Below, one piece after another: positions 2,314 through 21,840 of a DNA stretch of 44,757 nucleotides. The stretch spans positions 11,699 through 56,455 of the forward strand of contig JABGPG010000238.1 of NCBI GenBank assembly GCA_018645085.1. The letters are read 5' to 3'. The DNA is from Deltaproteobacteria bacterium (GTDB lineage: Bacteria; SAR324; NAC60-12). A model generated the notes under the pieces. It was not told the origin of the DNA, searched no databases, and saw only the letters and a list, made by a program, of their open reading frames with translations. Position 1 is the first letter of the stretch. Each line of letters opens with the position of its first letter. The position numbers and the translations under genes are program-made.

Positions 2314-2443
2314 TTGAAAAAACAGGCTATATAAAAAAATAAACAAGTACAGGAGATAGAGATTTGTTGAAGGCGCTTGAAAGTAGAGCACTGATAAAAT
2401 CCAGCTATCCTCTAACCTAGTTAAAATAATAAAAGGTTTGCTT

Positions 2444-3361: not shown

Positions 3362-4053
3362 ACATCACAGGTAAAAGTATTGGTGAGACAAATCGGGCAT
3401 TAAGAAATCTCATTGCCGATCATGATCAAGTGATCATTGACAATCCACATTCCTCACACAATTTGGGAACAGCTCTCAAAGGCAATGGCAAGGTAACCAT
3501 CAACGGCAGCACTGGCTATTTCACCGGCGGTTTTTTGGCCGGGCCTACTCTTGATATCCTGGGGAACACTGGATGGTACACCGGTGATAATATGAGTGCC
3601 GGTGAAATTATTATTAGCAAAAACACCGGAAGCAACTGTGGTCCTTCGATGATGGGAGGCACTATTCTGGTACGCGGTAATAGCGGAAGCCGTGTAGGTT
3701 TTGCGATGAAAGGTGGAAATCTGATTGTCTGCGGAGATGTTGGACGCTGGGCCGGTTACATGACTTTGGGCGGACGCATCATTGTGTTAGGTGAAATGGG
3801 GCCGGTAATCGGTGAATCAATGTACCGTGGCATTATTCATACCGCTGATCCTGCTGTGGAAAAGAAGTTGGGAAATAATGTCAGCGTTATTCCCATTTCG
3901 GATGCTGAAAAAAAAGAAGTCTCTGCCCTGTTTGAAAAATACCAAATTGATCATCCAGTTAACTCTTTGAAAAGCGTGATTCCGTTAAAAACAGGACGGA
4001 CAAAATATACGATATTTAATCCAACTCACAAAGTGAGGTCTAAAAATGACTGA
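3349..4053 (+). CDS. GXGXG beta-helix protein, MgsB/GlxC-like (glutamate synthase domain 3 / FwdC fold)
   Basis: Repeated GxxGxxxGxxMxGG units. Overlaps both neighbouring genes. Confidence 0.85.
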   Translation: MEHLDITGKSIGETNRALRNLIADHDQVIIDNPHSSHNLGTALKGNGKVTINGSTGYFTGGFLAGPTLDILGNTGWYTGDNMSAGEIIISKNTGSNCGPSMMGGTILVRGNSGSRVGFAMKGGNLIVCGDVGRWAGYMTLGGRIIVLGEMGPVIGESMYRGIIHTADPAVEKKLGNNVSVIPISDAEKKEVSALFEKYQIDHPVNSLKSVIPLKTGRTKYTIFNPTHKVRSKND

Positions 4054-5359
4054 AGAAGCAACAAAAACAAGAAACCGTAAAAAAGATAAAATTCCAAAGG
4101 TGCCAAATCCCGATGGAATATGGACAAAAGAGGTTCGCGCTGAAATAAATCATAAAGCAGTAACCGGTCAGCATCGTATACGTGGAATGGGTGTAAACAT
4201 GCGATACCCCAACTTTGATGATTTGCTGGTTTTGCCGGCGCAGCTTTCACGTTTGTCTGTCGACACTTACCGCGAACCATGTGTCACCAAAACAGTTTTG
4301 GGAACACGCTTCGCGAAAAAACCGCTGGAAATTGAAACTCCGATTATGATTTCCGGAATGTCATACGGTGCGTTAGGTAAAGAAGCAAAAACCGCATTGG
4401 CCAAAGCAACCCAAATTGTCGGGACTTCGATCAATAACGGAGAAGGCGGATTACTTCCGGAAGAAAGAGACAACTCCTATAAACAGGTTGTACAGATCCT
4501 TCCCAGCCGTTTCGGCTTTTCGCTGGAAACGATTGAAGCTGCGGATGCGCTGGAAATTATTTGCGGAATTGGGGCGAAACCCGGACTTACAGGACATCTC
4601 TTAGGAAGTAAAATTACAGAGGAAATTGCGGAAATGCGACAAATTCCTGCAGGACTGGATCTTTACAGCCATCCTCGTCACGGTGATATATTTGGTCCGG
4701 ATGACATGGTTTTGAAAATTCAGGAACTGAGAGATATTACCAATTATGAAATTCCGATTTTCCTGAAAATTGCGGCAGGCCGTGTTACTGAAGATGTTAA
4801 AATTGCCGTTAAAACCGGTGCGGACGGAGTCGTGATTGATGGCTGTCAGGGCGGTACAGGAGCGGCGCCGGTAGTGGCTTTGAAACATTTGGGCATCCCT
4901 ACCTTACCAGCATTGGTGCAAGCCACAAAGGCTCTTGAGGATATGGGGGTCAAAGATGAATTCAGTCTCATCGTTTCAGGCGGGATCAAGGACGGAGCGG
5001 ATGTTGCCAAAGCAATGGCACTTGGTGCGGATGCAGTTGCTATCGGAACCGGAGCGAATATTGCCTTGGGATGCACGACCTGTCACCAGTGCCACGAAGG
5101 AATTTGCGGTTCCGGAATCTGTACGCAAGAACCGCAGTATCGTGAATTGCTTAAATGTGACGCAGCTGAAAGAGTGGCAAATTATATAACTGCCATGACA
5201 AACGAAGCTGTGATCCTCGCCAAAGCAGCGGGTAAAACTAGGCTGTCAAATCTGGAGCGGGAAGACATTCGTTCAATTACTTTGGAAGCTTGTGCAATGA
5301 CCGGAATTCCATTGGTCGGAACAAATTATACTTTTACGGAAAGGTTTGGGTTTTGTTGA
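4046..5359 (+). CDS. FMN-binding glutamate synthase family protein, MgsC/GlxD-like
   Basis: MSYGAL, GEGG, GAKPG, DGCQGGTGA and SGGIKDGADVAKAMALGAD motifs. CTTCHQCHEGICGSGIC Fe-S region. Confidence 0.88.
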   Translation: MTEEATKTRNRKKDKIPKVPNPDGIWTKEVRAEINHKAVTGQHRIRGMGVNMRYPNFDDLLVLPAQLSRLSVDTYREPCVTKTVLGTRFAKKPLEIETPIMISGMSYGALGKEAKTALAKATQIVGTSINNGEGGLLPEERDNSYKQVVQILPSRFGFSLETIEAADALEIICGIGAKPGLTGHLLGSKITEEIAEMRQIPAGLDLYSHPRHGDIFGPDDMVLKIQELRDITNYEIPIFLKIAAGRVTEDVKIAVKTGADGVVIDGCQGGTGAAPVVALKHLGIPTLPALVQATKALEDMGVKDEFSLIVSGGIKDGADVAKAMALGADAVAIGTGANIALGCTTCHQCHEGICGSGICTQEPQYRELLKCDAAERVANYITAMTNEAVILAKAAGKTRLSNLEREDIRSITLEACAMTGIPLVGTNYTFTERFGFC

Positions 5360-5747
5360 CATTATAAATCAGAGCTAATCTGCTTGAAACAGTTGTTCAG
5401 GATTGACAAATGTTACTTTTGGGTTCCGTTTTTTGAATTACAAAAGATGTTGATGTTATCAAGTGACTCTATGCAGAAAAACGAAATATTTGTTGATTTA
5501 ATAATTCCGGTGAAATGGAAGCAGGCAACGCTGGGGAGTGACCTGCCAAGGGATAACCGGAAGTTTTTTTCATACCTTGAAAACCTAAAGAAGGAGGCTA
5601 CAGGGAAAAAAGGATTCCGATTTCGTAATCAATTTATGCTGTATTACGACTTGATGAATCCGGCTTAACTTGTAATCCGGCATGTGTCATTCCTCTTCAT
5701 GGTGAATTGGAAAGCGCCTGCCATAGTAATAAACAAATAGAGGTAAA

Positions 5748-6935
5748 ATGAAACACTTTGTAATTACGACAATGTTCGGAACATTGGTAGTACTTCTTTC
5801 ACTGGGAACGGTTTCAGCCGGATCGTTCAATATTGATGCTGTACTTGCAACAAATCTTTCGTCCTGTAAAGCAGCTCCGAGTGGGACACCTTTGAAAATC
5901 GGTTATGCCGCCGATTTTTCGGATCTGGGAGGATTTGCTGATAAACCAGCCAGTCAAGCCGCATTATATTTTGTGGAACTGGTTAACTGTGCAGGCGGAG
6001 TTGACGGATCTCCAATCAAGTTAATTATAAAAAATATCGAAGGCAATCCGGAAGTAACTCAACGTGTCGGACATGAATTGATGGCTGCAGGAGTATCAGC
6101 CATGCTCGGACCTCCATTTCCGGATTTCGGTGAGCCTCTGTTACAAGTAACTGCAGGAAAAGTTGCGACTCTGTTTGTTGCTTCAACAGAACCCATGCTG
6201 GCTAATTCAAAAGCACTTTCGTACCTGGTCGCTTTTGATGACACAGCGCAAGCGACCGCCGCCGCCAAATTCGCACTTCAACAAGGATGGAGAACGGCGG
6301 TAACATTTTCCGCACCTGGTCCTTATTTTGGTTACAATCCGAAAATTTTCAGCAAAGTTTTCAAAGCCGGTGGAGGTAGCATAACCGCCGATTACAACTT
6401 TGTGCCGATTGATGACATGGATTTTTCCACGCAAGCCAATAAAATGGCTTCGGCGGGAAAAGCTCCGGATGTGGTTTATTCAGCCATGCTTTCCTTTCAA
6501 AGTGCTGTTTTGCGGGGGCAGTTAGATGCTGCTGGTGTAAAGACTAATTATCTGGTAACCGATGCTTTTGAAGCAACAGGAGGTTATTTCACAAAAGGCG
6601 TAGAAGGTTTTTATCACACTACACATTCCTATCCGGCGGAGGGTAGCCGCGTCAAAATATTAGCTGACGGTTATCAGGCAGCAAAAGGCGCTCCTTTGGA
6701 AAATGCCTCTTTCGGTGGATTGGCTGTTGATGCATTGGCAGTCATTATCAGTGCTTTCCAAAGTTCTGGTTCAATGGATCCAAAAATACTTGGTGCTGCA
6801 ATTGCTAATGCCGACGGAGTAGAAGGTGCTACAAGTAACCTTTCTTATTCGGGTGCCAATGGAGCTCCTTCTAAACCGGTCTTTGTTCACCGTGTTGTAG
6901 ATGGAGCACCAACGTTAGCGGCCACAATTCAGTAA
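5748..6935 (+). CDS. ABC transporter periplasmic binding protein (LivJ/K, HAAT family)
   Basis: N-terminal signal peptide, VNCAGGVDG and DFSTQ motifs. First gene of a LIV-type operon. Confidence 0.85.
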   Translation: MKHFVITTMFGTLVVLLSLGTVSAGSFNIDAVLATNLSSCKAAPSGTPLKIGYAADFSDLGGFADKPASQAALYFVELVNCAGGVDGSPIKLIIKNIEGNPEVTQRVGHELMAAGVSAMLGPPFPDFGEPLLQVTAGKVATLFVASTEPMLANSKALSYLVAFDDTAQATAAAKFALQQGWRTAVTFSAPGPYFGYNPKIFSKVFKAGGGSITADYNFVPIDDMDFSTQANKMASAGKAPDVVYSAMLSFQSAVLRGQLDAAGVKTNYLVTDAFEATGGYFTKGVEGFYHTTHSYPAEGSRVKILADGYQAAKGAPLENASFGGLAVDALAVIISAFQSSGSMDPKILGAAIANADGVEGATSNLSYSGANGAPSKPVFVHRVVDGAPTLAATIQ

Positions 6936-7663
6936 TGGATAGTGGTTTGCTTAACGTTGAAAACCTGAATACCCGCTATGGTTCTATACGAGCTATTCGC
7001 AGAGTCGGATTAACTGTTAAGGCTGGTGAGATTGTCTGTCTCATCGGCCCTAATGGTGCAGGAAAAACGACTTTGCTGGGGACTGTAGCAGGGCTATTGA
7101 ATCCGGTTCAGGGACAGGTAGTTTTCAATAATGTAGATATAACAGGCTGGTCTCCGGATCGAGTACTCCGTGCAGGTCTTTCCCTAGTACCGGAACATCG
7201 CAGAATTTTCGGCAACTTTACTGTTCGTGAGAATCTGCTAGTTGGCGGTGTGACTCTATCTCAGGATCAACGGGAAAATTTGCTGGAGGAAATGCTGGAC
7301 CTTTTTCCTGTACTGAAAGATAAACTTTCGGTTTCCGCCGGATTTCTCTCTGGTGGTGAAGCTCAACAACTTGCCATAGGCCGTGCCTTGATGAGCAACC
7401 CTAAAATGCTGCTCATGGATGAGCCGTCATTGGGTTTGGCACCTGTACTTGTGGATGTGGTGTTTGAACTGATCTCCAAATTGCGTGATAGTGGTCGGAC
7501 CCTGCTGGTTGTGGAACAAAACGCACAACGTATACTTAACGTTGCCGACAGGGCTTATGTGATGCGTTCGGGGCAGGTTGTCGCAGAAGGTTCGGCTTCA
7601 GAATTGTCAGGAAGCGAGGACCTTTTTAAGACTTACCTTGGTGGTTCGGGAGTTGCGGCGTGA
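6935..7663 (+). CDS. ABC ATPase, LivF-like
   Basis: Walker A GPNGAGKT, LSGGEAQ signature, DEPSLGLAP, VEQN. Confidence 0.92.
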   Translation: MDSGLLNVENLNTRYGSIRAIRRVGLTVKAGEIVCLIGPNGAGKTTLLGTVAGLLNPVQGQVVFNNVDITGWSPDRVLRAGLSLVPEHRRIFGNFTVRENLLVGGVTLSQDQRENLLEEMLDLFPVLKDKLSVSAGFLSGGEAQQLAIGRALMSNPKMLLMDEPSLGLAPVLVDVVFELISKLRDSGRTLLVVEQNAQRILNVADRAYVMRSGQVVAEGSASELSGSEDLFKTYLGGSGVAA

Positions 7664-8547
7664 TGGAACTGATTCAACAAATTGTCGATGGTTTGGGGCG
7701 AGGTAGTATTTACGCTTTGCTTGCTCTAGGGATTGCTGTGATTTTCGGAGTGATGCACATGGTCAATTTTGCACACGGCGAACTTATCACGGTCAGTGCA
7801 TACACTAGTTACTGGCTGCTTACAAGCGGCTTTGATTGGTGGTATGTGGCATTGGCGATAATAGTTGTTGCGGCTATTAGCTCTGTTGTTATTGAATTTG
7901 TGGCGTTTCGCTGGGTACGCGGCGCGCCTGACTTTACCATGTTGATGACCTCTTTTGGAGTCCATTTTCTAGTGCAGGCACTTTTCGTAATGTACGTGTC
8001 GGCTAATTTTCGACAATTTCCGCGCCCTGACTGGATATTTAACACTTGGAAAATTGGTGCAATCAACCTTGAAATTTACGACTTAGCGGTAATTGCTACC
8101 ACATTAATCACACTTCTCGGTACTTATTGTCTTTTACAACATACGATGTTTGGTATAAGCCTGCGCGCTGCAGCCGAAGATTTTGATGCTGCCCATCTTA
8201 TGGGTATTCGCAGTAACCGCGTTATCCGGGGAGCATTTTTTCTTTCCGGTCTTTTAGCTGGAGTTGCCGCAGTATTTTGGTTGATGCGTAGCGGTCAAGC
8301 CGGACCTGTTGCAGGTCTCAATCCAATGTTAAAAGGTGTTTTGGCTGCTTTAATTGGTGGTCTGGGAAGCCTGAGTGGAGCCGTGCTTGGAGGATTTGCG
8401 TTGGGCTTGGTTGAAGTTCTACTTATCGCACGCCTGCCGACCGAAGTTGTTGGCTTGACAGATGGAATTGTTTTTGTGCTGATTGCTCTACTTTTTGTTT
8501 TTCGACCTCAGGGTTTAATAACTGTGCATCACGTGGAGCGTGTCTGA
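7663..8547 (+). CDS. ABC permease, LivH-like
   Basis: GSIYALLALG, VNFAHGE, IGGLGSL and RPQGL motifs. ATG overlaps the livF stop (TGATG). Confidence 0.9.
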   Translation: MELIQQIVDGLGRGSIYALLALGIAVIFGVMHMVNFAHGELITVSAYTSYWLLTSGFDWWYVALAIIVVAAISSVVIEFVAFRWVRGAPDFTMLMTSFGVHFLVQALFVMYVSANFRQFPRPDWIFNTWKIGAINLEIYDLAVIATTLITLLGTYCLLQHTMFGISLRAAAEDFDAAHLMGIRSNRVIRGAFFLSGLLAGVAAVFWLMRSGQAGPVAGLNPMLKGVLAALIGGLGSLSGAVLGGFALGLVEVLLIARLPTEVVGLTDGIVFVLIALLFVFRPQGLITVHHVERV

Positions 8548-10400
8548 TGCGACATGACTCTATCCGCCATCTCGTTTTTCCAACATTTGGCTCAATCTTA
8601 CTGATTGTGGTTTTGATTTGCGGGGGCATACTTTATACAGCAAACGGCGATGCATCACGTGACAGTCTGATCACACAAATGCTGATAAATGCCATCATCG
8701 TGCTTGGTATTCAAATTTACATCGGAAACACAGGAGTTTTATCCTTTGGGCACATCGGTTTCGGAGCGATTGCCGGATATACATTTGCTATTTGTGCCAT
8801 TTCTCCTGCACGTAAAATGATGCAAATTCCTGATGCTCCGTTTGGACTGGCGAATGTTGACTTGACCCCTTTAGCGTCAGGAATAATCGCAGTTGGTCTA
8901 ACAGTAGCGTTGGCATTTTTTGTCGGCATGGCACTTTCACGTGCAGGTGTCCGTTCAGGTGCAGTATCAGCAGTTGTGATTACTTTGGCCCTACTGTTTG
9001 TCGTTCACGAAGTAGCTCGAAACTGGACAGATCTGACCCGTGGAGGGAAGATAGGCCTTTCTTTCAGCCCTTTTGGTAATGCAACTCTTGAAGGGAAAAA
9101 CTGGATTTACGTATTTTTGTTTTGTGCGGTTTTGCTGGCTAGACTATTCAAGGAAACGCGAATTGGCCGTTTTGCGCAGTGCGTGCGTGAAGACGATCTT
9201 GCTGCGCGGACGATGGGAATTGATCCAGCAATTCAGCAAATGTGGGCTTTAATTATTTCAGTAGCCCTAGTGTCGGTTGGATCGACCTTAAGAGTTTTTG
9301 AGTTAGGTAGCATCAATCCAAGGTTGTTCTTTTTTGATTATACATTATTGACGCTCACCATGCTAATAGTCGGAGGGCGTAACGGTATTACTGGTGCTTT
9401 GACCGGAGTAGTGATTATCACCATCGGTAGTGAACTGACTCGCAAATTGTCTGAATTGGATATTGTAGCATTGAGTTGGATTTTGCGTGAAGGTCTGACC
9501 GATTTATTTCTGGGCGGCGCTATGCTCGGATTTATGATTCTGCGGCCTGCCGGTATTTTAGGAGATTTTGAGTTTGATCATTGGCTGCACGAACGATTCC
9601 TCCATAGGCAAAAGAAAAAGACTTGGACATCGAAGGAAGAACAGATACGAAGCAAAGTTGTTAAAAAAAACCAAACCGTGTTGAATGTTGAAGGTGTCAG
9701 CGTTAATTTTGGCGGTTTTCGGGCACTGGGAAATGTAGAGTTGAAGGCTACCGGGGACGAAATCGTGGGACTGATTGGTCCCAACGGCGCGGGAAAAACG
9801 ACATTGCTGAATGTTATTACAGGACTTGTAGAACCAGATTCCGGGCGAGTCCAACTCGGTGAAAAGAATTTGACGGGAATGCAACCGCACGAAATTGCAA
9901 GATCTGGATTGGTACGCACCTTTCAAAATTTTCGGTTATTTTCAGACCTGAGTGTCCGTGAAAATATCGAGGTAGTCCACTTGATGGCCGGAAAGTACCG
10001 TTCTGCACAAACTCCGGATGTTGACACTTTGCTGTTTCAAGCGGGGCTTTGGGAGTTTCAAAGTTTAAGAGCTGCAGGTTTGGATTATGGAAATGCACGG
10101 CGGTTGGAATTGGCACGTGCTGTTGCCGCCGCACCGGATTTTCTTCTACTTGATGAGCCAACAAGCGGAATGGATGATAACGAATCAATGGCCATGATTG
10201 ACCAAGTACGGACAATGTCTTCAATGGTTGGTTCCGGAGTTGTTGTTATCGACCACGATTTGAATTTCATCACCGGAATTTGTGACCGGGTTTATGTGCT
10301 TGACCAGGGGTGTGTGATTGCCTCCGGAACACCTGCGGAAATTTCAGCCGATCCTGCAGTAAAAGTGGCGTATTTGGGTACAACTGCCGAAGCTGCCTGA
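8547..10400 (+). CDS. Fused ABC permease (LivM-like) and ATPase (LivG-like)
   Basis: N-terminal membrane domain with GVLSFGH. C-terminal GPNGAGKT, RTFQN, LLLDEP and IDHD. Confidence 0.9.
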   Translation: MRHDSIRHLVFPTFGSILLIVVLICGGILYTANGDASRDSLITQMLINAIIVLGIQIYIGNTGVLSFGHIGFGAIAGYTFAICAISPARKMMQIPDAPFGLANVDLTPLASGIIAVGLTVALAFFVGMALSRAGVRSGAVSAVVITLALLFVVHEVARNWTDLTRGGKIGLSFSPFGNATLEGKNWIYVFLFCAVLLARLFKETRIGRFAQCVREDDLAARTMGIDPAIQQMWALIISVALVSVGSTLRVFELGSINPRLFFFDYTLLTLTMLIVGGRNGITGALTGVVIITIGSELTRKLSELDIVALSWILREGLTDLFLGGAMLGFMILRPAGILGDFEFDHWLHERFLHRQKKKTWTSKEEQIRSKVVKKNQTVLNVEGVSVNFGGFRALGNVELKATGDEIVGLIGPNGAGKTTLLNVITGLVEPDSGRVQLGEKNLTGMQPHEIARSGLVRTFQNFRLFSDLSVRENIEVVHLMAGKYRSAQTPDVDTLLFQAGLWEFQSLRAAGLDYGNARRLELARAVAAAPDFLLLDEPTSGMDDNESMAMIDQVRTMSSMVGSGVVVIDHDLNFITGICDRVYVLDQGCVIASGTPAEISADPAVKVAYLGTTAEAA

Positions 10401-10694
10401 AAAATAAAATTGTTTTGTGGGAGAAGTATGTTAAGTAAATAGAATTATTAGAAACTAATGAATTCCTTCAAATACTCAAATTATTTATCTGTGGCAGTCA
10501 GTAATCTCCTTGTTTTTTAAAGTTATTACATTGCTGATGAACCGCTAAAAAGACCAAGACGAACCATTGCTTACAAAGCAAGAAATATATTTAAATTTAC
10601 TGCATTAATATCAATATTTCTCCCTATTGTCGAAATGACAATATAAGGATTTCAAAGTTTATAAGAAGGCATCATTTCTATACAAAAAATCAAA

Positions 10695-10973
10695 ATGACA
10701 GCGACACGATACAAAAAAATCGAACGGGGCAAGCCCATCAGCATTATGGTCAACGGTGAAGCGATCGAAGCTTTTCACGGCGAAAGCATTGCTGCCGCAA
10801 TGCTGGCTTCAGGAAGAAGAGCTTTTCGTCATACGGTCAAAGGAAAACAAGCCCGTGGTTTCTTTTGTGGAATGGGTATGTGTTTTGACTGCATTGCCAC
10901 GGTTGACGGAGTTCCACATGTGCGGACATGTATGACTGAGGTTTCTCCTGATTGTGTTGTGGAACTGGAATAA
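10695..10973 (+). CDS. [2Fe-2S] subunit of HcnA / sarcosine-oxidase-alpha N-terminal type
   Basis: GESIAAAM and CGMGMCFDC...RTC motifs. Confidence 0.85.
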   Translation: MTATRYKKIERGKPISIMVNGEAIEAFHGESIAAAMLASGRRAFRHTVKGKQARGFFCGMGMCFDCIATVDGVPHVRTCMTEVSPDCVVELE

Positions 10974-11106
10974 AATTCTTTAGTGTTATGGGATTCGACG
11001 GCACACGATTCTGTTAACCAAAGAGTTGATTAGATTCCAAAGTATAATTAGCTAAACTTATGAATTTCTTGAAAATTTAATTTTATTAAACATATAAATA
11101 TTAAAG

Positions 11107-12561
11107 ATGTTTGAAAAACCTGAACAAACGGATATAGCCATTATCGGGGCGGGGCCTGCCGGAGTTGCTGCTGCTGTTACAGCGGCACATGCAGGTGCGC
11201 AGGTTACGCTTCTGGATGAATCTCCTCGTGCAGGTGGTCAGTATTATAAACAACCGGCCTTGGACGCAAAAGACAAACAGTTCCCCCCGACGGTTGCTGA
11301 AAATATTCGCAAGGGTCGGGAATTGTTGAGCGATTTGCAACATTCAAATATCAATTTTCAGCACAGTACTTTGGTTTGGAATGTACTGCCGGAAGAGCGA
11401 ATTCTCAATTTGTATGGTCCACAAGGCGCACAAAACTTACAGGCAAAGCGCATCATAATTGCCGCAGGTGCCTACGAACGTGTAACTCCTTTTACAGGCT
11501 GGACAAAACCCGGAGTGACTACAGTTGGCGGTGCGCAGCTTTTATTGAAGTCGCAGGGATTGAAAATCGGACAACGTTTGCTTTTAGCCGGAACCGGACC
11601 TTTGCTTCAACTTGCGGCGGTGCAGTTTATGGAAGCAGGAATGGAAGTTGCGGCAATTCTGGAATTGCAGTCACGCAAGGAATTTTTGTTAAAAGCTCCT
11701 AAATTATGGGGACATTGGGACAAACTCGGGCAAGGAATGGCGAATCAGAAACGTTTGCTCGAAGCAGGGATTCCGTTTAAATTCGGCTACACCGTCGCAG
11801 AAGCTACAGGTGATGAAGAGGTAAACGGAGCGGTGATTATGAAAGTAAATGGGAAGGGAATTCCGGTTTTGGGAAGTGAAGAAACAATTGAAGTTGATAC
11901 TATTTGTTTGAATTACGGTTTTGCACCGGCGGTTGAATTAGCTCGTGTAGCAGGGTGCACAATGGTTTTTGATAAATATTTTGGTAGTTTTGCAATTGAA
12001 ACAAATGAGAACCTGGAAACCAGTGTCAATGCTTTTTTCGTAGCTGGAGAAACTCGGGGTATCGGCGGAGTGGAAGTTGCGTTGCTCGAAGGAAAATTGG
12101 CGGGAGCTATCGCCGGTAGTCAATTGGGATTCACTCCGAAAGTTGATGAAAGCAATTTACGAAAAGAACAACAACAGGCAAGGAAAGCGGTCGCTGCACT
12201 TGGTACTATGTTTCCGCTCAAATCCGGATTATGTAAATTGGTAAAGGACGAAGTTCCTGTTTGCCGATGTGAAGAAGTGACTGCTGGAGAAGTACGCAGA
12301 GCAATTGAAATGGGAGTAACTCAACTAAATCAATTAAAACCCTGGACCCGTGTCGGAATGGGACGTTGTCAAGGCAGGATTTGCGGAGGAATTCTGAATC
12401 AAATGTTGGCAGATGAAACTGGTGTGTCAATAAGTGAAATCCAGCCTTTCACGTCGAGAGCACCTATCAAGCCTGTGCCTATGGAATCAGTCGGTGGAGG
12501 GGATGATTCCGGCGAATTCACCTGGGAAGATCATGTAGGTTACGGAGCAGCGAGGACATGA
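11107..12561 (+). CDS. FAD/NAD(P)-binding oxidoreductase with C-terminal BFD-like [2Fe-2S] domain (HcnB/OoxA-like)
   Basis: IIGAGPAG, GGQYY, GAYER, AGE and CRCEEVT...GMGRCQGRIC. No aminomethyltransferase (THF) domain. Confidence 0.85.
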   Translation: MFEKPEQTDIAIIGAGPAGVAAAVTAAHAGAQVTLLDESPRAGGQYYKQPALDAKDKQFPPTVAENIRKGRELLSDLQHSNINFQHSTLVWNVLPEERILNLYGPQGAQNLQAKRIIIAAGAYERVTPFTGWTKPGVTTVGGAQLLLKSQGLKIGQRLLLAGTGPLLQLAAVQFMEAGMEVAAILELQSRKEFLLKAPKLWGHWDKLGQGMANQKRLLEAGIPFKFGYTVAEATGDEEVNGAVIMKVNGKGIPVLGSEETIEVDTICLNYGFAPAVELARVAGCTMVFDKYFGSFAIETNENLETSVNAFFVAGETRGIGGVEVALLEGKLAGAIAGSQLGFTPKVDESNLRKEQQQARKAVAALGTMFPLKSGLCKLVKDEVPVCRCEEVTAGEVRRAIEMGVTQLNQLKPWTRVGMGRCQGRICGGILNQMLADETGVSISEIQPFTSRAPIKPVPMESVGGGDDSGEFTWEDHVGYGAART

Positions 12562-14282
12562 TAATGAAGAAACTTAAAGCAGATGTTATCATTATCGGTG
12601 GAGGAATTGTCGGCTGCACTACTGCATACAATTTGTCGCAACGCGGTGCTGATGTTTTACTGATAGAAAAAAATGGTATCGGTAGTGGTGCTACGGGGCG
12701 GTCCGGTGGAGGAATTCGTCAATCGGCCAGGGTTTCCAACGAAATTCCTTTGGCCATGGAAAGCGTGGCGTTATTTCCGGGATTGTCAGCTGAACTTGGG
12801 ATTGACATTGAATACACTCAGTCCGGTAATTTCAGGCTGGTCGAAATGCCCGACCATCTGCGTCCAATGCAAGTTGATGTCGCCCGGCAGCAATCGCACG
12901 GCTTGGATGTGCGTTGGCTTGGTGTAACGGATGTCCTGGAACTTGCTCCGGGACTGCGCTGGCAAAATATCATGGGGGCAAGCTATTGTCCTGATGATGG
13001 ACATTGTGATCCATTCCGCATGGTTTCAGGCTTTTTTCGTAAAGCAAAAGAATTCGGCACAAAGGTTTTACTAAACAGCGAGGTACAAAGCATTGAGCAA
13101 ACGGATGACGGAAAAGCCGTTGTCAAAACCAGCACACATTCCGTTCAAGCAGAAAAAGTGATTATTGCGGCAGGCTTTGGTTCGCAGGAATTATGTCAAA
13201 AAATAGGTTTGGATTTGCCTCTGCAAAATGTGCGTTACGAATCCATGGTTACAGAACCGCTGCCTCCGATTTTATCACAAATGTTCGGGGTGGCCAGCAG
13301 TGATTTGTTTTTCCGGCAGACGCAGAACGGTGGAATTCATTTTGGGGGGGGGCTGCTCGAGGAAGAAGATGAGGAAGACACCAAGACTACCCGAGATAAT
13401 TTAAACATGGCTGTGGCGCATATTTCCCGACTAGTCAAGGACTTGGGAAAAACCAACTTGCTGCGGACATGGGGAGGACTTGATCCGAGTACTCCTGATG
13501 GTATGCCGATCCTCGATTATCTCAATGAAAACGTCTTGCTGGCCACAGGTTTTTGCGGACACGGCTTGGCGCTGGGACCCATTGTCGGAAGATATTTAGC
13601 GGAATGGATATCCAGCGGCCAACTTCCGGAAGCACTGGAACCATTCAAGCGGAACCGTTTTGACGGTTGGCTCCAAACTAAATGGACCCCCTCTGGTGCA
13701 TTTGCGGCAGTTTTAGCAACCGAAGACACTCAGACTTCCGGAAGAGGAACTGTTGGATCCGGGATCCCGTTTATGACACCGCCGGAATATGATGATTCGG
13801 AAGATGAAGGTTTGCATAAATTATTGTCGGTGAATCCGGAAATGTGTACCGGCTGCCGGATGTGCGAAAGTGCGTGTTCCATTGAACACGAAAAAATGGT
13901 TCGCCAAACTGGTTTACGGATTCAGGTGGCTTATCCGAGTGATGACTTTTTTCTGCCGATTATGTGCATTCATTGCGAAGAAATGCACTGCATGGAGGCT
14001 TGCGTATACGATGCTTTGGAAATCAACGATTATGGAATTGTTTCAGTTGTTGATGAAAATTGTATAGGCTGCATGCTCTGTATTCCGGCCTGTCCCACTG
14101 GAGGAATAACGTATGTAGACAGCAAAGAAACAGTTGTCAAATGCAATCTATGTGGTGGGAATCCGGCTTGTGCCAAATATTGTCCCACACAAGCAATTAC
14201 CTTCCGTCCGATTGATGATGAAATCCGTGAAAAAATGGAGACTGTGATGAGCAAACATCTTGATTCACGAATAGAAAAGTAA
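12558..14282 (+). CDS. DAO-family FAD amine dehydrogenase (HcnC/OoxB/SoxB-like) fused to a 4x[4Fe-4S] ferredoxin
   Basis: IIGGGIVG, GATGRSGGGIR, TPDGMP, GFCGHGLALGP. From about 13818 there are four Cys clusters: CTGCRMCESAC, CIHCEEMHCMEAC, CIGCMLCIPAC, CNLCGGNPACAKYC. Confidence 0.85.
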   Translation: MIMKKLKADVIIIGGGIVGCTTAYNLSQRGADVLLIEKNGIGSGATGRSGGGIRQSARVSNEIPLAMESVALFPGLSAELGIDIEYTQSGNFRLVEMPDHLRPMQVDVARQQSHGLDVRWLGVTDVLELAPGLRWQNIMGASYCPDDGHCDPFRMVSGFFRKAKEFGTKVLLNSEVQSIEQTDDGKAVVKTSTHSVQAEKVIIAAGFGSQELCQKIGLDLPLQNVRYESMVTEPLPPILSQMFGVASSDLFFRQTQNGGIHFGGGLLEEEDEEDTKTTRDNLNMAVAHISRLVKDLGKTNLLRTWGGLDPSTPDGMPILDYLNENVLLATGFCGHGLALGPIVGRYLAEWISSGQLPEALEPFKRNRFDGWLQTKWTPSGAFAAVLATEDTQTSGRGTVGSGIPFMTPPEYDDSEDEGLHKLLSVNPEMCTGCRMCESACSIEHEKMVRQTGLRIQVAYPSDDFFLPIMCIHCEEMHCMEACVYDALEINDYGIVSVVDENCIGCMLCIPACPTGGITYVDSKETVVKCNLCGGNPACAKYCPTQAITFRPIDDEIREKMETVMSKHLDSRIEK

Positions 14283-14293
14283 CAGGGAAAATT

Positions 14294-16129
14294 ATGTACT
14301 ACGGATACACCGGAACCATCTTGCGGGTTAATTTGACGCATGGCGAAGTTACAAAAGAAGCACTCGATCTCAAAATGGCAGAAGAATTTGTCGGTGGACG
14401 CGGCTTAGCTTCCAGATTGCTCTGCGCAGAGATTGATCCTGAGATTGAAGCTATGAGTCCGGAAAATCCGCTGATCTTCGGAACAGGACCTTTGACTGGA
14501 ACGGGAGCACCGGCGACTGCGCGTTATGTCGTAGTTTGTAAAGCACCGTTGACTGGAACCATCGCTTGCTCCAATTCCGGAGGCTTTTTTGGACCAGAAA
14601 TAAAATTTGCCGGTTATGACGCACTGATTATTGAAGGCGAGTCTCCTGAACCAGTTTATCTGTGGATCCAGGATGATCGAGTTGAAATACGTTCTGCTTC
14701 ATTATTATGGGGAAAAACTCCCGTTGAGACAGAAAGCACTCTACAGAAGCTGACTCATCCGGCTTCGAAAATCGCCTGCATCGGTCCCGGTGGAGAAAAG
14801 CTGTCTTTGATGGCCGGAATCGTCAATGACAATTATCGTCTCGCAGCGCGAAGTGGAGTTGGTGCTTTGATGGGTAAAAAGAAGCTGAAAGCAATTGCTA
14901 TACGCGGAACCGGAGGAGTGAATCTCGCTGACCCCGAACAGTTTTGGAAAGCATCAATGGACATGCATGCTAAAATTACTGGAGATCCTGTTTCATTTGG
15001 AAGTTTCCGGGCTTACGGTACTGCCAGCCTTGTTAATTTGATCAACGAAATGGGGGCTTATCCCACCCGTAATTTTCAATCAGACACATTTGAAGATGCG
15101 GTAAAAACGGGAGGAGAAGCGATTACAGAAGATATTTTAGAACGTAACCGTGCCTGTTTCGCCTGCCCGATTTCCTGCACCCGGGTGACAGAAGTTAAAG
15201 AGGGACCGTACAAAGGCCGCGGTGAAGGGCCTGAATACGAATCTACCTGGTCTTTAGGCGCTCTCTGCGGGGTTTCGAATCTAGAGGCCGTGGCAAAAGC
15301 AAATTATCTTTGCGGAGATTACGGCATCGACACTATTTCCACCGGAGCGACTATTGCTTGTGCGATGGAGCTTTTTGAAACCGGTGCTTTGTCAGAAAAA
15401 GAAATTGGTTTCCCTCTGCGTTTTGGCGATGAGGCAGCAATGGTGCGAGCAGTTGAAATGACAGGCAAGCGCGAAGGGTTTGGTGATATTTTAGCGGACG
15501 GAAGTTATCGATTGGCTGAACGTTACGGACATCCTGAATTTTTCATGGGCGTAAAAAAACTGGAAATGTCCGCTTACAGCCCCAGAGTTTTTCAGGGTAT
15601 GGCGCTTCAATACGCCACCTCCAACCGTGGAGCGTGTCATGTGCGTGGCAATACTGTAGCTGCTGAACTGTATGGAATTCCACGTTATATGCCTCCGGAA
15701 GTTTTGGAGCAAAAAGAAGAAATGGTGCGGCGTCCATTCCAAAACTCCACTGCTTTTGTGGATTCCACCGGAATTTGTCTTTTTACAAAATTTGCAATAA
15801 CGCACCGTGAAATTTGTGCCTTGCTGGCTCCGGCTACCGGTATTGATTTTAACTTCGACCGCTCGATTGTTCAGGGCGACCGCATCTGGAATTTAGAACG
15901 CATGTTTAACCTTCGCGCCGGATTCACCGCTGCGGATGACAAACTACCCGCCCGCGTGAGTGAACCTTCTCCTGACGGACCGCGTGCCGGCAGCCGCGCA
16001 ATTCTGCAAAACCACATTCAAACCTACTATCAATTACGTGGTTGGGATGAAGAAGGCCGCCCCACTCGTTCAAAGTTGAAAGAGCTAAATTTAGAAGACT
16101 TCTGGAACGTCTGCAGCGAACATGATTAA
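14294..16129 (+). CDS. aor: Tungsten-type aldehyde:ferredoxin oxidoreductase (AOR family)
   Basis: GYTGTILRVNLT start, GGRG, SNSGG, GRSG-like AARSGVGA, CFACPISC, GPEYE, DYGIDTIS, RGACH, DSTGIC, YYQLRGWD. Length 611 aa. Confidence 0.92.
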   Translation: MYYGYTGTILRVNLTHGEVTKEALDLKMAEEFVGGRGLASRLLCAEIDPEIEAMSPENPLIFGTGPLTGTGAPATARYVVVCKAPLTGTIACSNSGGFFGPEIKFAGYDALIIEGESPEPVYLWIQDDRVEIRSASLLWGKTPVETESTLQKLTHPASKIACIGPGGEKLSLMAGIVNDNYRLAARSGVGALMGKKKLKAIAIRGTGGVNLADPEQFWKASMDMHAKITGDPVSFGSFRAYGTASLVNLINEMGAYPTRNFQSDTFEDAVKTGGEAITEDILERNRACFACPISCTRVTEVKEGPYKGRGEGPEYESTWSLGALCGVSNLEAVAKANYLCGDYGIDTISTGATIACAMELFETGALSEKEIGFPLRFGDEAAMVRAVEMTGKREGFGDILADGSYRLAERYGHPEFFMGVKKLEMSAYSPRVFQGMALQYATSNRGACHVRGNTVAAELYGIPRYMPPEVLEQKEEMVRRPFQNSTAFVDSTGICLFTKFAITHREICALLAPATGIDFNFDRSIVQGDRIWNLERMFNLRAGFTAADDKLPARVSEPSPDGPRAGSRAILQNHIQTYYQLRGWDEEGRPTRSKLKELNLEDFWNVCSEHD

Positions 16130-16367
16130 TGTTACTGTAAAACTCAGCGCCGATTTGCGTCGTTATCGTCCAGCTCTAAGAATTGATGAATCCCTGCCAC
16201 TTTCAGTCCCGGAAGAGACGACTTTGCTGGAACTCCTCTCAGAAATACTACAAATTCCAGCCCATGCGATCGCCATTCCAATTGTCAACGGAGTTAAGTG
16301 TAAACTCAATCAAAAACTGGTAGAAGGTGACCGGGTAGCCTTCTGGCCGCCGATGGCGGGGGGCTAG
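16122..16367 (+). CDS. MoaD/ThiS family sulfur-carrier protein
   Basis: 81 aa ending in MAGG, with VNG and GDRV. Overlaps the AOR stop, as is typical in AOR operons. Confidence 0.85.
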   Translation: MINVTVKLSADLRRYRPALRIDESLPLSVPEETTLLELLSEILQIPAHAIAIPIVNGVKCKLNQKLVEGDRVAFWPPMAGG

Positions 16368-16645: not shown

Positions 16646-17206
16646 GTGTACGAGACATCAGATATTAGAAAAGGGCTGCGCTTTGAGATGGATGGAGATC
16701 CATTTGTTGTAGTGGATTTTCAGTTTGTTAAACCGGGAAAAGGAACAGCGTTTACACGGACTAAAATCCGTAACATGATAAGCGGCGCAGTACTTGACCG
16801 TACATACAAGTCAGGTGAAAAACTCAAACCTGCTGATACAGAAGACCGGCAAATGCAGTTTTTGTATAATGACGGTGAATTCCATTTTATGGATAATAAC
16901 AACTATGAACAGGTGAGTCTGGAAAGCAGTGCTGTCGGTGACGCGGTGAATTATCTGACTGAAAATATGCTGATTGAAGTTGGTTTTTTCAAGGGCCGTT
17001 CAATCGGATTAAGCCTGCCGAATTTTGTTGTTCTGGAAGTTACAGAAACTGCTCCCGGAGAAAAAGGGAACACAGTCACTGGAGCTTCTAAACCGGCCGT
17101 AGTGTCAACTGGTTACAGTGTCAATGTGCCTTTATTCGTCAATGAAGGAGATCAACTTCGGATTGATACACGAACCGGTGAATATGTGGAGCGAGTCAAG
17201 GGCTAG
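16646..17206 (+). CDS. efp: Elongation factor P
   Basis: KPGKG loop (Lys34 type), VNVPLFV and DTRTGEYVER. GTG start. Confidence 0.97.
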   Translation: MYETSDIRKGLRFEMDGDPFVVVDFQFVKPGKGTAFTRTKIRNMISGAVLDRTYKSGEKLKPADTEDRQMQFLYNDGEFHFMDNNNYEQVSLESSAVGDAVNYLTENMLIEVGFFKGRSIGLSLPNFVVLEVTETAPGEKGNTVTGASKPAVVSTGYSVNVPLFVNEGDQLRIDTRTGEYVERVKG

Positions 17207-17394
17207 TAGATCGTCCAGTTTGTCCTGTGAGGATGTGGCGTTCCCGGAGCGTAGTTATTCCGCCTATTCGAAAGAAAGTTGAAGTGAAATTTCCGGTCTG
17301 TTATCTGTTTCTGCTCAGTTCACTTCCATAAAAAGTTCATTATAATCCTCCTTTTTACCAGCCTTAATCAAAGTTGGAAATTTCATTAAACCTC

Positions 17395-18690
17395 ATGTCC
17401 AACTCTTCACAGACTTTCAGCAACTCACTTTTATCAGGACGCTGCCACGGACGCGTCCTCGAAGTTGTTTGCGGGAATGAGAAGTCGGAAGAGCCAACTT
17501 CCGAAAATCATAAAAACATTATTGTTTTAGTTAAAGACCAGTTGTATGCACTGAATTATCAAGGTGATACAGAACTCTCTGCAGGCTCTTTAATTTCATT
17601 TGAGCTTGGCGAAAATAGTGAAGTTGTAAAGCTGAAAACGGAAGGCCCCGCCGTCAATTTTGAGGCAGAAGGCGATTTACTGCGCTGGAGACGTCCGGCA
17701 ATTAATCCTTCTAGAATGAAACTTCTTCGGATTCGTCAGCAAATAATACATGGGATCAGGGAGTGGTTTGAACTGCAGGAATTTATTGAAACTGAAACTC
17801 CTTTACTGGTTTCCGCACCCAGTCCTGAGTCACAATTCTCACCCGTAAAAACTGATTCCGGATTTCTGATTACCTCTCCTGAGTTTCAGATGAAACGTTT
17901 GCTGGCAGGTGGTTTTGAAAAAATATACCAGCTCGCGCGTTGTTTCCGTAAAGCCGAAAGTGGTCCCCTGCACAATCCAGAATTTACCATGCTCGAATGG
18001 TATCGTAGCAATGAAGCACTGGAAGTTTTGATGTCGGATATTGAACAGCTGGTGCTGCATCTCAGCAAAACTATTACTGCGGAAAACTTTCCGGTGAAAA
18101 TTCCACTTCCGCCATGGCCACGTGTGACAGTCTGTTCTTTATTTAAAAAACATTTGAACATCATTTTGGACGGTTGCGAATCTGCCTCACAATTAAGGGA
18201 AAAAGCACAACTATCCGGACATGCGGAATTACTGGTTGATCTTGCAACAGAGCCAAACCTTACAGAATCACTGGCTTATGAACAAATATTTTTCCGGCTC
18301 TGGAATCATATCGAAGCGGAGTTTGCCGATTCTACTCCATTGTTTGTGTATGAATGGCCGTTACCGCTGGCAAGTCTAGCCCGGCCTTGTCCGCAACGTT
18401 CCGGGTTTGCTGAACGAGTTGAACTATATGTGGACGGTATGGAGTTGGCAAATGGATTTAGAGAATTGACAGATGCTGCCGAACAAAGACGACGCTTTGA
18501 ACAGGATTTGAAAAACAGGCTTTCTGAGGGACGCAGTTCTGTGCCCTTAGATGAAAAGTTTCTAAGATGTCTTGAGCAGGGTCTGCCTGAAAGTTCCGGA
18601 ATGGCAATGGGAGTTGACCGCTTGGTCATGTGGCTTTGCGGTGCAAAGCAGATTCGTGAAGTGCTGTGCTTTACTGAAGATGAAATATAA
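17395..18690 (+). CDS. epmA: EF-P lysine aminoacylase EpmA (GenX/PoxA) with N-terminal extension
   Basis: TSPEFQMKRLLAGG, HNPEFTMLEWY, ELANGF and GMAMGVDRL. Directly after efp. ATG at 17395 preferred over TTG at 17374. Confidence 0.88.
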   Translation: MSNSSQTFSNSLLSGRCHGRVLEVVCGNEKSEEPTSENHKNIIVLVKDQLYALNYQGDTELSAGSLISFELGENSEVVKLKTEGPAVNFEAEGDLLRWRRPAINPSRMKLLRIRQQIIHGIREWFELQEFIETETPLLVSAPSPESQFSPVKTDSGFLITSPEFQMKRLLAGGFEKIYQLARCFRKAESGPLHNPEFTMLEWYRSNEALEVLMSDIEQLVLHLSKTITAENFPVKIPLPPWPRVTVCSLFKKHLNIILDGCESASQLREKAQLSGHAELLVDLATEPNLTESLAYEQIFFRLWNHIEAEFADSTPLFVYEWPLPLASLARPCPQRSGFAERVELYVDGMELANGFRELTDAAEQRRRFEQDLKNRLSEGRSSVPLDEKFLRCLEQGLPESSGMAMGVDRLVMWLCGAKQIREVLCFTEDEI

Positions 18691-20739: not shown

Positions 20740-21840
20740 TTAACGTCTTCTCCGTCCAAAACCTCCAAAGCCAAATCCCCTGCTGCGGCGTCTTCCGCCA
20801 AAACTGAATTTTTTCCTTGGTACAACTCTACGTTTTGAAACAGCGGGTTTTCTCTGTGATGTGCTACTGCCAAAACCTCCTCCGGCAGTTTTACGGTTGG
20901 TGGAGCGGAATTTTGTGCTCTTGATATTATTCAGGGATTTCTTTGAAGTTGAACGGAACTTGTTTGACGAGACACTTCTACCGCCGGCTGTCTTTGCGGA
21001 AGAAGATGAGGGCGTGGCCTTTTTCATTTTTGAAGTGGACGCTCCTCTGCGGTTTTGAATAGAACTAACTGACCTTGCTCCACCGTAACCGTAACCATAA
21101 CCTAATCCACCTCCCCAGATATATGGTGGTCTAAAGAGCATTGACATCATCATTGATGTCATTAAAAGATTCGTCATGCTGTAACCGGTACCATAATATG
21201 GAGCGTATGGAGCTCCGGCTGACTGGTACATCTGCGGATTAGGAGTAGACTGCAACTTCATCTCATCACCCGTACCACGTACAACGGAGGCAGTCATGAT
21301 TTCGATAGATTTATTTTCAGCAATATCTTTCCAGGCAGCTTGATCTGAGCCTGACGGCAATGTGCTAACTTGATCGGGATCCGGAACCAAAATTGAAAAT
21401 AACAGAAAATCCGCATCGCCTTTTTCGGTTTGAGGTACTATCAAAACATGATCCGCCATTCCATCCTGATTCAAATCGATTGTACTTATATCACGCACTT
21501 TGTTTGATATTTTGTTGACCAGAGTCGGTAGAAAATCTTTGTCAGAAACCTGAGCCTGTGACGTTTCTCTTAACGCTTCAGAGGTGATTGCAGGGATTAA
21601 TTTTGGATCCAGATGTTCCGTTAGATCAATGCCAAGTTTTTCGATAGCTTCCGCGTTAAGTTGATTGCTGACTCCAATTGGAATATTTTGGGAAGAATAA
21701 TTGTAGCGTGCGGATTCCTGACTTTTATCTTCTCCAAAAAATACCCAGTAAAATCCTAAGAACAGAATTGCGATGAGGATACCCTGCGTAGAAAACAATT
21801 TTTCTAAACCGTTAGGAGGTTCATTATCTTTGTTGGCCAT
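20740..21840 (-). CDS. Hypothetical membrane-anchored protein with DxNxDG loop and Ser/Arg/Gly-rich basic tail
   Basis: N-terminal TM helix, DLNQDGMAD, and a low-complexity C-terminus ending GGFGRRRR. 366-aa ORF. Confidence 0.75.
   Translation of the reverse strand: MANKDNEPPNGLEKLFSTQGILIAILFLGFYWVFFGEDKSQESARYNYSSQNIPIGVSNQLNAEAIEKLGIDLTEHLDPKLIPAITSEALRETSQAQVSDKDFLPTLVNKISNKVRDISTIDLNQDGMADHVLIVPQTEKGDADFLLFSILVPDPDQVSTLPSGSDQAAWKDIAENKSIEIMTASVVRGTGDEMKLQSTPNPQMYQSAGAPYAPYYGTGYSMTNLLMTSMMMSMLFRPPYIWGGGLGYGYGYGGARSVSSIQNRRGASTSKMKKATPSSSSAKTAGGRSVSSNKFRSTSKKSLNNIKSTKFRSTNRKTAGGGFGSSTSQRKPAVSKRRVVPRKKFSFGGRRRSRGFGFGGFGRRRR

Follow-up and report, generated by a model that had tools for sequence, protein, structure and literature searches.

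Why would the catalytic subunit of a flavin-dependent dehydrogenase end in the iron–sulfur small subunit of a different enzyme, a tungsten aldehyde oxidoreductase (AOR)? This question is raised by a gene at positions 12558–14282 of the window, the whole 44,757-nucleotide stretch of DNA from a SAR324 bacterium (assembly GCA_018645085.1, contig JABGPG010000238.1) that was analysed here and to which all coordinates refer; genes are on the plus strand unless stated otherwise. The gene encodes a protein of 574 residues, in which a complete DAO-family dehydrogenase body is joined to a 4x[4Fe-4S] polyferredoxin module, and it directly precedes an AOR gene. It is a true, conserved fusion of subunits of two different enzymes. 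An earlier reading of the locus, made from the sequence only, had proposed an amine dehydrogenase tethered by the fusion to the AOR via an AorA-type polyferredoxin, and this proposal is supported by the identity of the module, the position of its gene, its conservation in three lineages and a model of the complex. As to function, we regard it as probable, though well short of certain, that the locus encodes a dehydrogenase of the N-alkyl(methyl)glutamate type that works without folate and is tethered to the AOR, the pair converting an amine via an aldehyde into an acid.

The fusion gene

The open reading frame (ORF) starts with an ATG that overlaps the stop codon of the preceding alpha gene (ATGA), and 11 nt (14283–14293) separate its end from the ATG of the AOR gene at 14294. 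Pfam places DAO at residues 9–350 (E 6.3e-78) and several Fer4 dicluster families within residues 428–549. Four segments can be distinguished: (i) the body of the beta subunit, a DAO-family FAD dehydrogenase (residues 1–366; 12558–13655); (ii) a conserved, fusion-specific tail, RFDGWLQTKWTPSG.F.A (residues 367–384; 13656–13709); (iii) a hypervariable Gly/Thr/acidic spacer (residues ~385–424; 13710–13829); and (iv) the polyferredoxin module (residues 425–550) with a predicted C-terminal helix (~554–567), together at 13830–14282. The ORF, the DAO domain, the in-frame Gly/Thr/acidic linker, the 4x[4Fe-4S] module and the 11-nt gap that the sequence-only reading had described are thus all borne out by the ORF list, the Pfam matches and the Cys motifs.

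In an alignment of 18 fused homologs, all 16 cysteines of the four motifs of the module (C430-x2-C-x2-C-x3-C, C470.., C502.. and C529..) are invariant, as are GxGxxG at residue 14 and R303-T-W305 in the DAO body. The spacer is variable in sequence and in length (~30–90 aa), its frame being kept in 18 of 18. The tail RFDGWLQTKWTPSG is invariant or nearly so in the fused sequences; it is missing from the closest unfused DAO relatives, P0056 and P0059, both of which terminate at ..RFN. Lying between the DAO body and the spacer, this tail had gone unmentioned in the earlier reading. Beyond the last Cys motif the protein continues for ~25 residues, among which only a low-confidence model predicts the helix 554–567, a candidate counterpart of the C-terminal helix by which AorA/WorS-type subunits assemble into nanowires.

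Conservation and spread of the fusion

Among the 120 matches listed from a search of 5.8 billion proteins, at least 52 are full-length clusters (561–632 aa) bearing both DAO and Fer4 Pfam domains at 54–99% identity, and four further, shorter pieces bear both domain types. Where named, the carriers of the 52 fused clusters are SAR324, Anaerolineae and Chloroflexi. Ten of ten related loci carry the four Fer4 motifs and not one stop; a stop and separate start in the linker, sought in these relatives, did not occur. The fusion gene is found in three of 88 genomes of the window's phylum (its own genome included), fused and full length in all three, in one of 17 other genomes of the same genus, and in two of 301 sampled genomes from the class of the Anaerolineae locus. 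When 1.84 billion representatives (50% identity) were searched exhaustively with a profile, the whole fused family came down to one representative; among the best 150 matches, one other reached the Fe–S part (a 172-aa junction fragment), the remaining 148 being DAO-only.

The DNA itself recurs in environmental data, which were consulted as Logan contigs, not raw reads. Near-identical DNA is present in 14 marine or seawater DNA runs, which may include the source sample, and 86–94% of the sampled words are present in six metatranscriptome runs, bearing in mind that RNA libraries can carry DNA. Four runs yielded contigs that cross the spacer, two of them DNA runs (X4, 12400–14500; X9, 12400–14338) and two RNA libraries (X15, 12488–14500; X16, 13336–14500). 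These contigs show no indels and no joints, their substitutions are silent or missense (M476I; I503T+G504A), none creating a stop, and an RNA-library contig continues from the fusion into the AOR. The cluster is present in RNA libraries and appears to be transcribed in the ocean.

The observations above also bear on the reading that the fusion is an artefact, i.e. two separate genes brought together by the loss of a stop codon, by a frameshift or by chimeric assembly. Nothing was found to support it, the short forms being only fragments on short contigs (P0053–P0055, P0057, P0121). It is opposed by the 52 full-length fused clusters, the ten loci and the three carriers in the phylum, by the indel-free spacer-crossing contigs of four runs, two of them RNA libraries, and by a spacer that stays in frame despite its variation in length; its probability is accordingly vanishingly small. 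The lost stop codon and the DAO plus Fer4 domain architecture, both of which the sequence-only reading had named as checks, are settled in favour of the fusion by the same contigs and clusters.

The fused family is single and tight, and it is patchily spread over SAR324, Gammaproteobacteria (Arenicellales and Acidiferrobacteraceae records) and Chloroflexota, which suggests one fusion event followed by transfer. Among the longer close relatives of the module, 20 of 20 carry the same DAO family and no other fusion partner. Stand-alone relatives of the module amount to seven matches; the best (56% identical, 151 aa) comes from a contig of 1153 bp and could be a fragment, and the others are at most 43% identical. 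A metagenome scan with the unfused relative P0059 did not recover that protein's own contig, and the loci it returned (L016–L086) hold distant DAO genes with a best identity of 45%.

Several side observations concern the spread of the cluster. The G+C content is 0.48 at 12001–16000, compared with 0.40–0.44 across most of the window, and the AOR is 81–91% identical between SAR324 and gammaproteobacterial-type loci, exceeding the neighbouring genes; both would fit recent lateral spread. One metagenome-assembled genome titled Acidiferrobacteraceae (G002) carries on each of two contigs (loci L002 and L009) a whole core, consisting of the gamma, alpha, beta::Fer4, AOR and MoaD genes. Each copy is ~69% identical to the window and the ABC transporter described below flanks only one of them; the pair could reflect a duplication or a mixed bin.

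The iron–sulfur module and the AOR

The best solved relatives of the module are AorA (8c0z_C; 117 bits, E 6.5e-33) and WorS (9mqx_E; 102 bits, 3.8e-28), ahead of WOR5-S (83 bits), HycB3 (75), FdnH (55), NrfC (51) and also HycB4. The downstream gene (14294–16129) encodes a tungsten AOR large subunit of the AorB/WorL type with 611 aa (Pfam AFOR_N 7.7e-78, AFOR_C 1.9e-139); its PDB matches are 9mqx_D (665 bits), the Pyrococcus furiosus AOR 1aor_A (619), AorB 8c0z_A (582) and FOR 1b25 (314), and it keeps the [4Fe-4S] ligands C288-x2-C291-x3-C295 and C495. Overlapping it by 8 nt is a gene for a small MoaD/ThiS-like protein (16122–16367; Pfam ThiS 7.4e-6, weak NCBIfam moaD matches), which ends in ..MAGG and resembles an aorD-like maturation factor; a MoaD-like gene follows the AOR in nine of nine loci. 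In the aorABCDE operon both aorD and aorE resemble MoaD (PMC6365974). No separate aorA-like gene appears in the cluster, as judged by the ORF list and Pfam. Because the module has its best solved matches in AorA and WorS, occupies the position of aorA and is accompanied by an aorD-like gene downstream, the C-terminal ~150 residues of the fusion are assigned, on these grounds, as the AorA/WorS-type 4x[4Fe-4S] small subunit of the neighbouring AOR, which agrees with the AorA-type identity proposed earlier.

A second AOR is encoded in the same genome (contig C140, locus L097, 7425–9365, minus strand; 646 aa, 35% identical to that of the window). It has no adjoining polyferredoxin or FAD subunit, is flanked by a sigma-54 activator on one side and an aldehyde dehydrogenase on the other, and lies near an AMP-binding ligase and a TctC-type receptor.

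A multimer check, which the earlier reading had suggested for the four proteins at 10695–16129, covered the AOR and fusion residues 360–574 (tail, spacer and module); its input alignments, drawn from the window and nine loci, were row-matched. Docking of the module onto the AOR passed its controls, with a median ipSAE interface score of 0.95 compared with 0.00 for the best control, although the pass may reflect memory of the solved structures 8C0Z and 9MQX, i.e. likeness to these complexes and not binding of the present copies. Of 80 solved complexes, 58 attain this ipSAE mark, as do two of 110 mismatched pairs; the docking runs share at least 67% of their contacts, and the pLDDT of the partners is at least 76. 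In the model, the tightest contacts connect AOR residues 287–292, the C288/C291 loop, to module residues 431–435 in the first Cys motif, and the AOR is further contacted by tail residues 368 and 370–373, by spacer residues 399–406 and by the last three residues of the fusion. The modelled contact matches the geometry described for FS0 of AorB and FS1 of AorA in AorABC. We infer from the model that the module would dock on the AOR as AorA does on AorB, its first cluster facing the [4Fe-4S] cluster of the AOR.

The contacts between tail and AOR have no counterpart in the solved structures 8C0Z and 9MQX and are the most interesting lead from the docking. If they are real, the DAO body would sit close to the AOR and would not be held on a long leash, and the tail may serve docking, having arisen with the fusion or being required for it.

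The dehydrogenase

The two genes upstream of the fusion encode further redox proteins. The first (10695–10973; 92 aa; Pfam Fer2_4 6.9e-25) corresponds to a [2Fe-2S] gamma subunit with the motif C58-x4-C-x2-C-x12-C, and the second (11107–12561; 484 aa) to an alpha subunit, in which Pfam distinguishes an FAD Rossmann domain (Pyr_redox_2) and a BFD-type [2Fe-2S]/SoxA-A3 domain with the motif C-x-C-x32-C-x4-C, a match to Fer2_BFD (2.3e-11) supporting the cluster site. Both motifs are present in the window and in ten of ten loci, as are the ADP-binding motifs and, in beta, the R-x-W motif of the FMN site. The best solved relative of the DAO part is 1y56_B, the beta subunit of the proline dehydrogenase complex of P. 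horikoshii (5.9e-45), ahead of dimethylglycine dehydrogenases, glycine oxidases and SoxB; its best NCBIfam match, glycine oxidase ThiO, scores 153 bits and is below cut-off. NCBIfam gives no equivalog-level name to any gene of the cluster. For alpha, the best PDB matches are SoxA alpha and 1y56_A.

Taken together, these matches make the DAO part the catalytic beta subunit of a dye-linked dehydrogenase of the alpha-beta-gamma type, with the two preceding genes encoding gamma and alpha. Enzymes of this family bind two FAD, an FMN at the interface and [2Fe-2S], and include flavin opine dehydrogenase, D-hydroxyproline dehydrogenase, HCN synthase and archaeal L-proline dehydrogenase (PMC4575208). 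The amine dehydrogenase of the sequence-only reading hence stands as a DAO-type dehydrogenase and falls as a free-standing enzyme, the genes at 10695 and 11107 supplying its gamma and alpha subunits. The same reading had seen in the 11107 protein an FAD-type subunit, as found here, and a possible exit to NAD(P), a role that meets counter-evidence: neither NAD(P)+ nor O2 was used by one characterised enzyme of the family (PMC4575208), and alpha has no match to AorC among PDB entries at E <= 0.001. The candidate assignment of alpha as an AorC homolog was dropped on the latter result.

Alpha and gamma can also be aligned to sarcosine oxidase. On the NCBIfam model TIGR01372 soxA (996 positions), gamma matches positions 10–61 and alpha only positions 168–598; judged by Pfam and by this coverage, alpha has no GCV_T folate domain, and SoxD and SoxG Pfams are absent from the ORFs between 10400 and 16400. 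The enzyme of the window would thus equal SoxB plus the N-terminal ~590 residues of SoxA, without the folate half, SoxD and SoxG. It is not a member of the MgdABCD/SoxBDAG group, although it may work like one.

Related enzymes occur elsewhere in the same genome. A canonical SoxA-like paralog of 960 aa (contig C50, locus L099) contains Fer2_4, Pyr_redox_2, A3/BFD, GCV_T and GCV_T_C and has a SoxD neighbour. An unfused alpha/beta pair (contig C45, locus L098, 468–3071, minus strand; 31% and 29% identical) lies beside 2-oxoglutarate dehydrogenase genes, and several proteins of ~790–840 aa combine DAO and GCV_T. This repertoire indicates a genome rich in enzymes that would oxidise N-methyl compounds and amines.

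Gene neighbourhood and the source of the amine

All genes from 985 to 16367 lie on one strand, in the order glutamine synthetase (GS)-like, GltB-like trio, transporter, gamma, alpha, beta::Fer4, AOR and MoaD-like. The GS-like ligase (985–2313; Pfam Gln-synt_C 8e-104) is gmaS-like and a candidate gamma-glutamyl-amine synthetase; NCBIfam matches it to type III GS (333 bits, cut-off 470) and GlnA (318 bits, cut-off 429). The GltB-like trio comprises an mgsA-like class II amidotransferase subunit (2438–3361; Pfam GATase_6 and GATase_7), an mgsB-like GXGXG subunit (3349–4053; Pfam GXGXG 2.4e-23) and an mgsC-like FMN subunit (4046–5359; Pfam Glu_synthase 8.7e-102). The mgsA-like protein has an 'MCGLTG' start; its true start is likely the ATG at 2444, giving M-C-G-L and an N-terminal Cys nucleophile. 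A gmaS gene plus a split GltB trio, mgsABC, forms the gene set of the N-methylglutamate (NMG) pathway (PMC5023235), and the split GATase/GXGXG/FMN trio with its putative N-terminal Cys matches mgsABC. The Liv-type ABC transporter (5748–10400; Pfam Peripla_BP_6, ABC_tran, BPD_transp_2) consists of a binding protein (5748–6935), an ATPase (6935–7663), a permease (7660–8547) and a fused permease-ATPase (8547–10400). The nearest solved relatives of the binding protein are of the Leu/Ile/Val type and only weakly similar (E 2e-10), giving no hint of the ligand.

The core order of gamma, alpha, beta::Fer4, AOR and MoaD is kept in nine of nine loci with downstream DNA, the contig of L007 ending just after the fusion. 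The transporter (64–94% identity) flanks the core in eight of the nine loci with flanks; it precedes the core in SAR324 and follows it in the gammaproteobacterial loci. In L004, L005 and L006 the core has a gmaS ortholog as its neighbour, and in the genomes of L001 and L008 such an ortholog shares a contig with the core (70–86% identity); mgsC orthologs are 84–96% identical in L005, L008 and the genome of L001. Because these modules stay together in different gene orders, their arrangement argues for a functional, not accidental, link between the GS-like/mgsABC-like genes, the transporter and the core. In the Chloroflexota locus L107 (G244, contig C66), an mgsC-like gene (a 65% homolog), gamma, alpha, beta::Fer4 and AOR follow one another in order. 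The DNA inserted there (6231–9302 and 11419–15117, minus strand) encodes PD40 beta-propeller proteins, a PA14-domain protein, a methyltransferase and two proteins without a Pfam match. In L003, the genes upstream of the core are unrelated and on the opposite strand.

How the dehydrogenase obtains its substrate can be read from this neighbourhood in two ways. In the reading that we prefer, an imported primary amine would be converted by the GS-like and mgsABC-like enzymes into the N-alkylglutamate that is oxidised. Alternatively, the same tethered complex could act on a secondary amine or an N-substituted amino acid that is imported as such (opine-like, an N-methyl amino acid, or sarcosine/glycine yielding glyoxylate), with the GS-like and glutamate synthase-like genes re-assimilating the released ammonia or amine; we regard this as rather unlikely, though worth keeping in view. 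The transporter accompanies the core in eight of nine loci and orthologous gmaS/mgs genes do not do so in the genomes of L002, L003 and L010; the GS-like protein is closest to true GS, ThiO is the best, if sub-threshold, NCBIfam match of the DAO part, and characterised family members act on opines, proline, hydroxyproline and glycine, all of which would suit direct import. It fits less well with three modules kept together in differing orders (SAR324, L005, L008), with the mgsC-like gene in order with gamma in L107, which points to a functional link, and with a split GATase/GXGXG/FMN trio plus a GS-like gene, a recognised signature of the NMG pathway.

Downstream of the cluster, at 16646–18690, lies a gene for EF-P and after it one that resembles class II lysyl-tRNA synthetases but is truncated (438 aa, TTG start, tRNA-synt_2 only); the latter probably encodes the EF-P lysylation enzyme of the EpmA/PoxA type, and the same pair follows the cluster in the SAR324 locus L001. 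On the minus strand, a 1152-aa ORF (23356–26814) has a weak match to the Pfam family GlnD_UR_UTase (7.9e-7), and a 366-aa ORF (20740–21840) has no Pfam match.

A model for coupled amine and aldehyde oxidation

The preferred reading, N-alkylglutamate oxidation by a dehydrogenase tethered to the AOR, could proceed in the following manner: A small primary amine, most likely methylamine, would be imported and gamma-glutamylated by the GS-like ligase, and the mgsABC-like enzyme would convert the product to N-alkylglutamate. The alpha-beta-gamma dehydrogenase would then oxidise the N-alkyl side, yielding glutamate and an aldehyde, which the tethered AOR would oxidise at once to the acid; in the case of methylamine, formaldehyde would become formate. 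Since no folate domain captures the aldehyde, we propose that the AOR takes it directly. AOR_Aa, a multi-subunit bacterial AOR, indeed oxidises formaldehyde and short aldehydes (PMC6365974, Table 3). The electrons of both steps would share one chain, composed of the tungsten cofactor, the cluster of the AOR, the four clusters of the module, the flavins and the two [2Fe-2S] clusters, the fusion tying the dehydrogenase to the AOR both physically and electronically.

A more far-reaching version of this model, which we consider quite unlikely, takes the alpha-beta-gamma dehydrogenase as a fifth kind of 'plug' on the WorS/AorA wire, the first to be substrate-oxidising and covalent, and adds electron confurcation to a methylamine-type oxidation that is tungsten-dependent and free of folate and oxygen. 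High-potential electrons from the amine and very low-potential electrons from the aldehyde would merge onto an acceptor of intermediate potential, such as NAD(P)+; three flavins and the two [2Fe-2S] clusters would do the merging, and the aldehyde step would pay for the amine step. If this were true, the abundant SAR324, Arenicellales and Chloroflexota of the mesopelagic and of oxygen-minimum zones could oxidise methylamine-type compounds to the acid with neither folate nor oxygen.

At the other end stands a reading in which the module is an electron conduit only, serving as a shared wire or passing electrons of the dehydrogenase to a soluble ferredoxin, while the AOR oxidises unrelated aldehydes or associates loosely, with no aldehyde handed over. 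WorS/AorA nanowires do accept plugs whose sole role is electron transfer (BfuABC, AorC and a quinone-linked type; PMC12318220), AORs have broad substrate ranges, and the genes of L107 are non-contiguous. A catabolic amine dehydrogenase without a folate-capture domain would release its aldehyde, however, and the AOR is the sole aldehyde-consuming enzyme of the conserved core. Moreover, the potential of the amine couple is too high to make it a sensible acceptor from, or donor to, the AOR couple alone. On balance, a mere conduit appears very unlikely.

In addition to the possible memory effect in the docking, several points weigh against N-alkylglutamate oxidation by a tethered pair of enzymes. 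Concerning the chemistry, it is solely the AOR that points to an aldehyde as product; characterised members of the alpha-beta-gamma family release no free aldehyde but keto acids or cyclic imines, and the Cys spacing of alpha is 32 here compared with 15–20 in the family (PMC4575208). AOR_Aa is less active on formaldehyde (4.1 vs 25 U/mg; PMC6365974), and the AOR of the window resembles broad-range AORs more closely than it does FOR (314 bits). Concerning the supply of N-alkylglutamate, the GS-like ligase falls below both NCBIfam cut-offs and is, in the PDB, nearer to true GS (254 bits) than to the glutamate-methylamine ligases 9qur (216) and 7cql (214). The genomes of L002, L003 and L010 (Arenicellales/Acidiferrobacteraceae-type) contain only distant homologs, GS-like at 31–36% and mgsC-like at 39–49% identity, located elsewhere, which is why the core does not need adjacent gmaS/mgs genes. 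Concerning the complex, the fusion and the AOR are 3.2 kb apart in L107, with unrelated genes in between and a further insert of 4.4 kb in the cluster, and an AlphaFold2 model of the whole fusion from the 18-row alignment was poor (mean pLDDT 49.8, pTM 0.49), being unfit for a fold search or for domain geometry.

If N-alkylglutamate oxidation by the tethered pair holds, the locus would encode a natural two-step machine from amine to acid with built-in control of the toxic intermediate, and a folate-independent alternative to N-methylglutamate dehydrogenase and sarcosine oxidase. Tungsten enzymes would then take part in the turnover of organic nitrogen in widespread, transcriptionally active mesopelagic bacteria. 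In current databases the fusion gene is labelled 'FAD-dependent oxidoreductase', 'sarcosine oxidase subunit beta' or 'hypothetical', and because these labels are generic, pathway reconstructions miss the link between amines and the AOR.

Comparison with known systems

A literature search of main texts, with partial coverage, found no prior description of an amine dehydrogenase fused to a polyferredoxin of the AOR type. A preprint on UBA868 Arenicellales (10.64898/2026.04.01.715867) deals with the gamma-glutamylmethylamide/N-methylglutamate route and, in its available part, mentions aldehyde, tungsten and sarcosine zero times.

Among dehydrogenases, the closest likeness is to the family of OpnDH, D-HypDH, HcnABC and L-ProDH (1Y56; PMC4575208), with which the locus shares three tandem genes, the gamma Cys motif, the R-x-W motif of beta and two ADP-binding motifs, the alpha Cys motif being present with a wider spacing; the available text describes no member whose beta subunit carries a polyferredoxin or whose partner is an AOR. 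MgdABCD/SoxBDAG (PMC5023235) resembles the locus in that beta is homologous to SoxB and alpha to N-terminal SoxA, in the company of gmaS-like and mgsABC-like genes, and in the proposed reaction, in which an N-alkyl amino acid would give an amino acid and an aldehyde. It differs in that its alpha subunit has ~960–1000 aa and a GCV_T domain, whereas the alpha of the window has 484 aa and Fe–S clusters in place of GCV_T; the C1 unit would here go to the AOR and not to tetrahydrofolate.

Among tungsten enzymes, AorABC of Aromatoleum aromaticum (8C0Z; PMC6365974, PMC10413684) likewise has a four-cluster small subunit encoded directly upstream of the subunit with the tungsten cofactor and a MoaD-like gene in the operon, and the modelled contact between the FS1-type cluster and that of the AOR matches the description of AorA and AorB. 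In AorABC the small subunit is a free-standing protein of ~17 kDa, whereas here it forms the C-terminus of a DAO flavoprotein, and the cluster has no AorC homolog. WorABCSL of Acetomicrobium mobile (9MQX; PMC12318220) provides the best solved match of the AOR and the second-best match of the module, and its WorS nanowire receives another redox module as a 'plug'.

Multi-subunit tungsten AORs have been described as modular, with a polyferredoxin nanowire that bears the catalytic subunits and into which varied electron modules plug (PMC12318220). Clade-87 WORs comprise the types BF (BfuABC plug), N (AorC-type), M (monomeric) and U (beside a quinone-linked dehydrogenase); these four types include no dehydrogenase-fused form, the words 'fused' and 'fusion' occurring zero times in the main text of that paper as available. 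To this series the locus would add a new sort of module, a substrate-oxidising flavoenzyme complex on the wire, which would make the very aldehyde that the AOR consumes. BfuABC is plugged in non-covalently via a helix, whereas the plug proposed here would be an alpha-beta-gamma amine dehydrogenase that is bound covalently. Both parts are of known kinds; what is new is the covalent joining of an AorA/WorS-type wire to an alpha-beta-gamma dehydrogenase.

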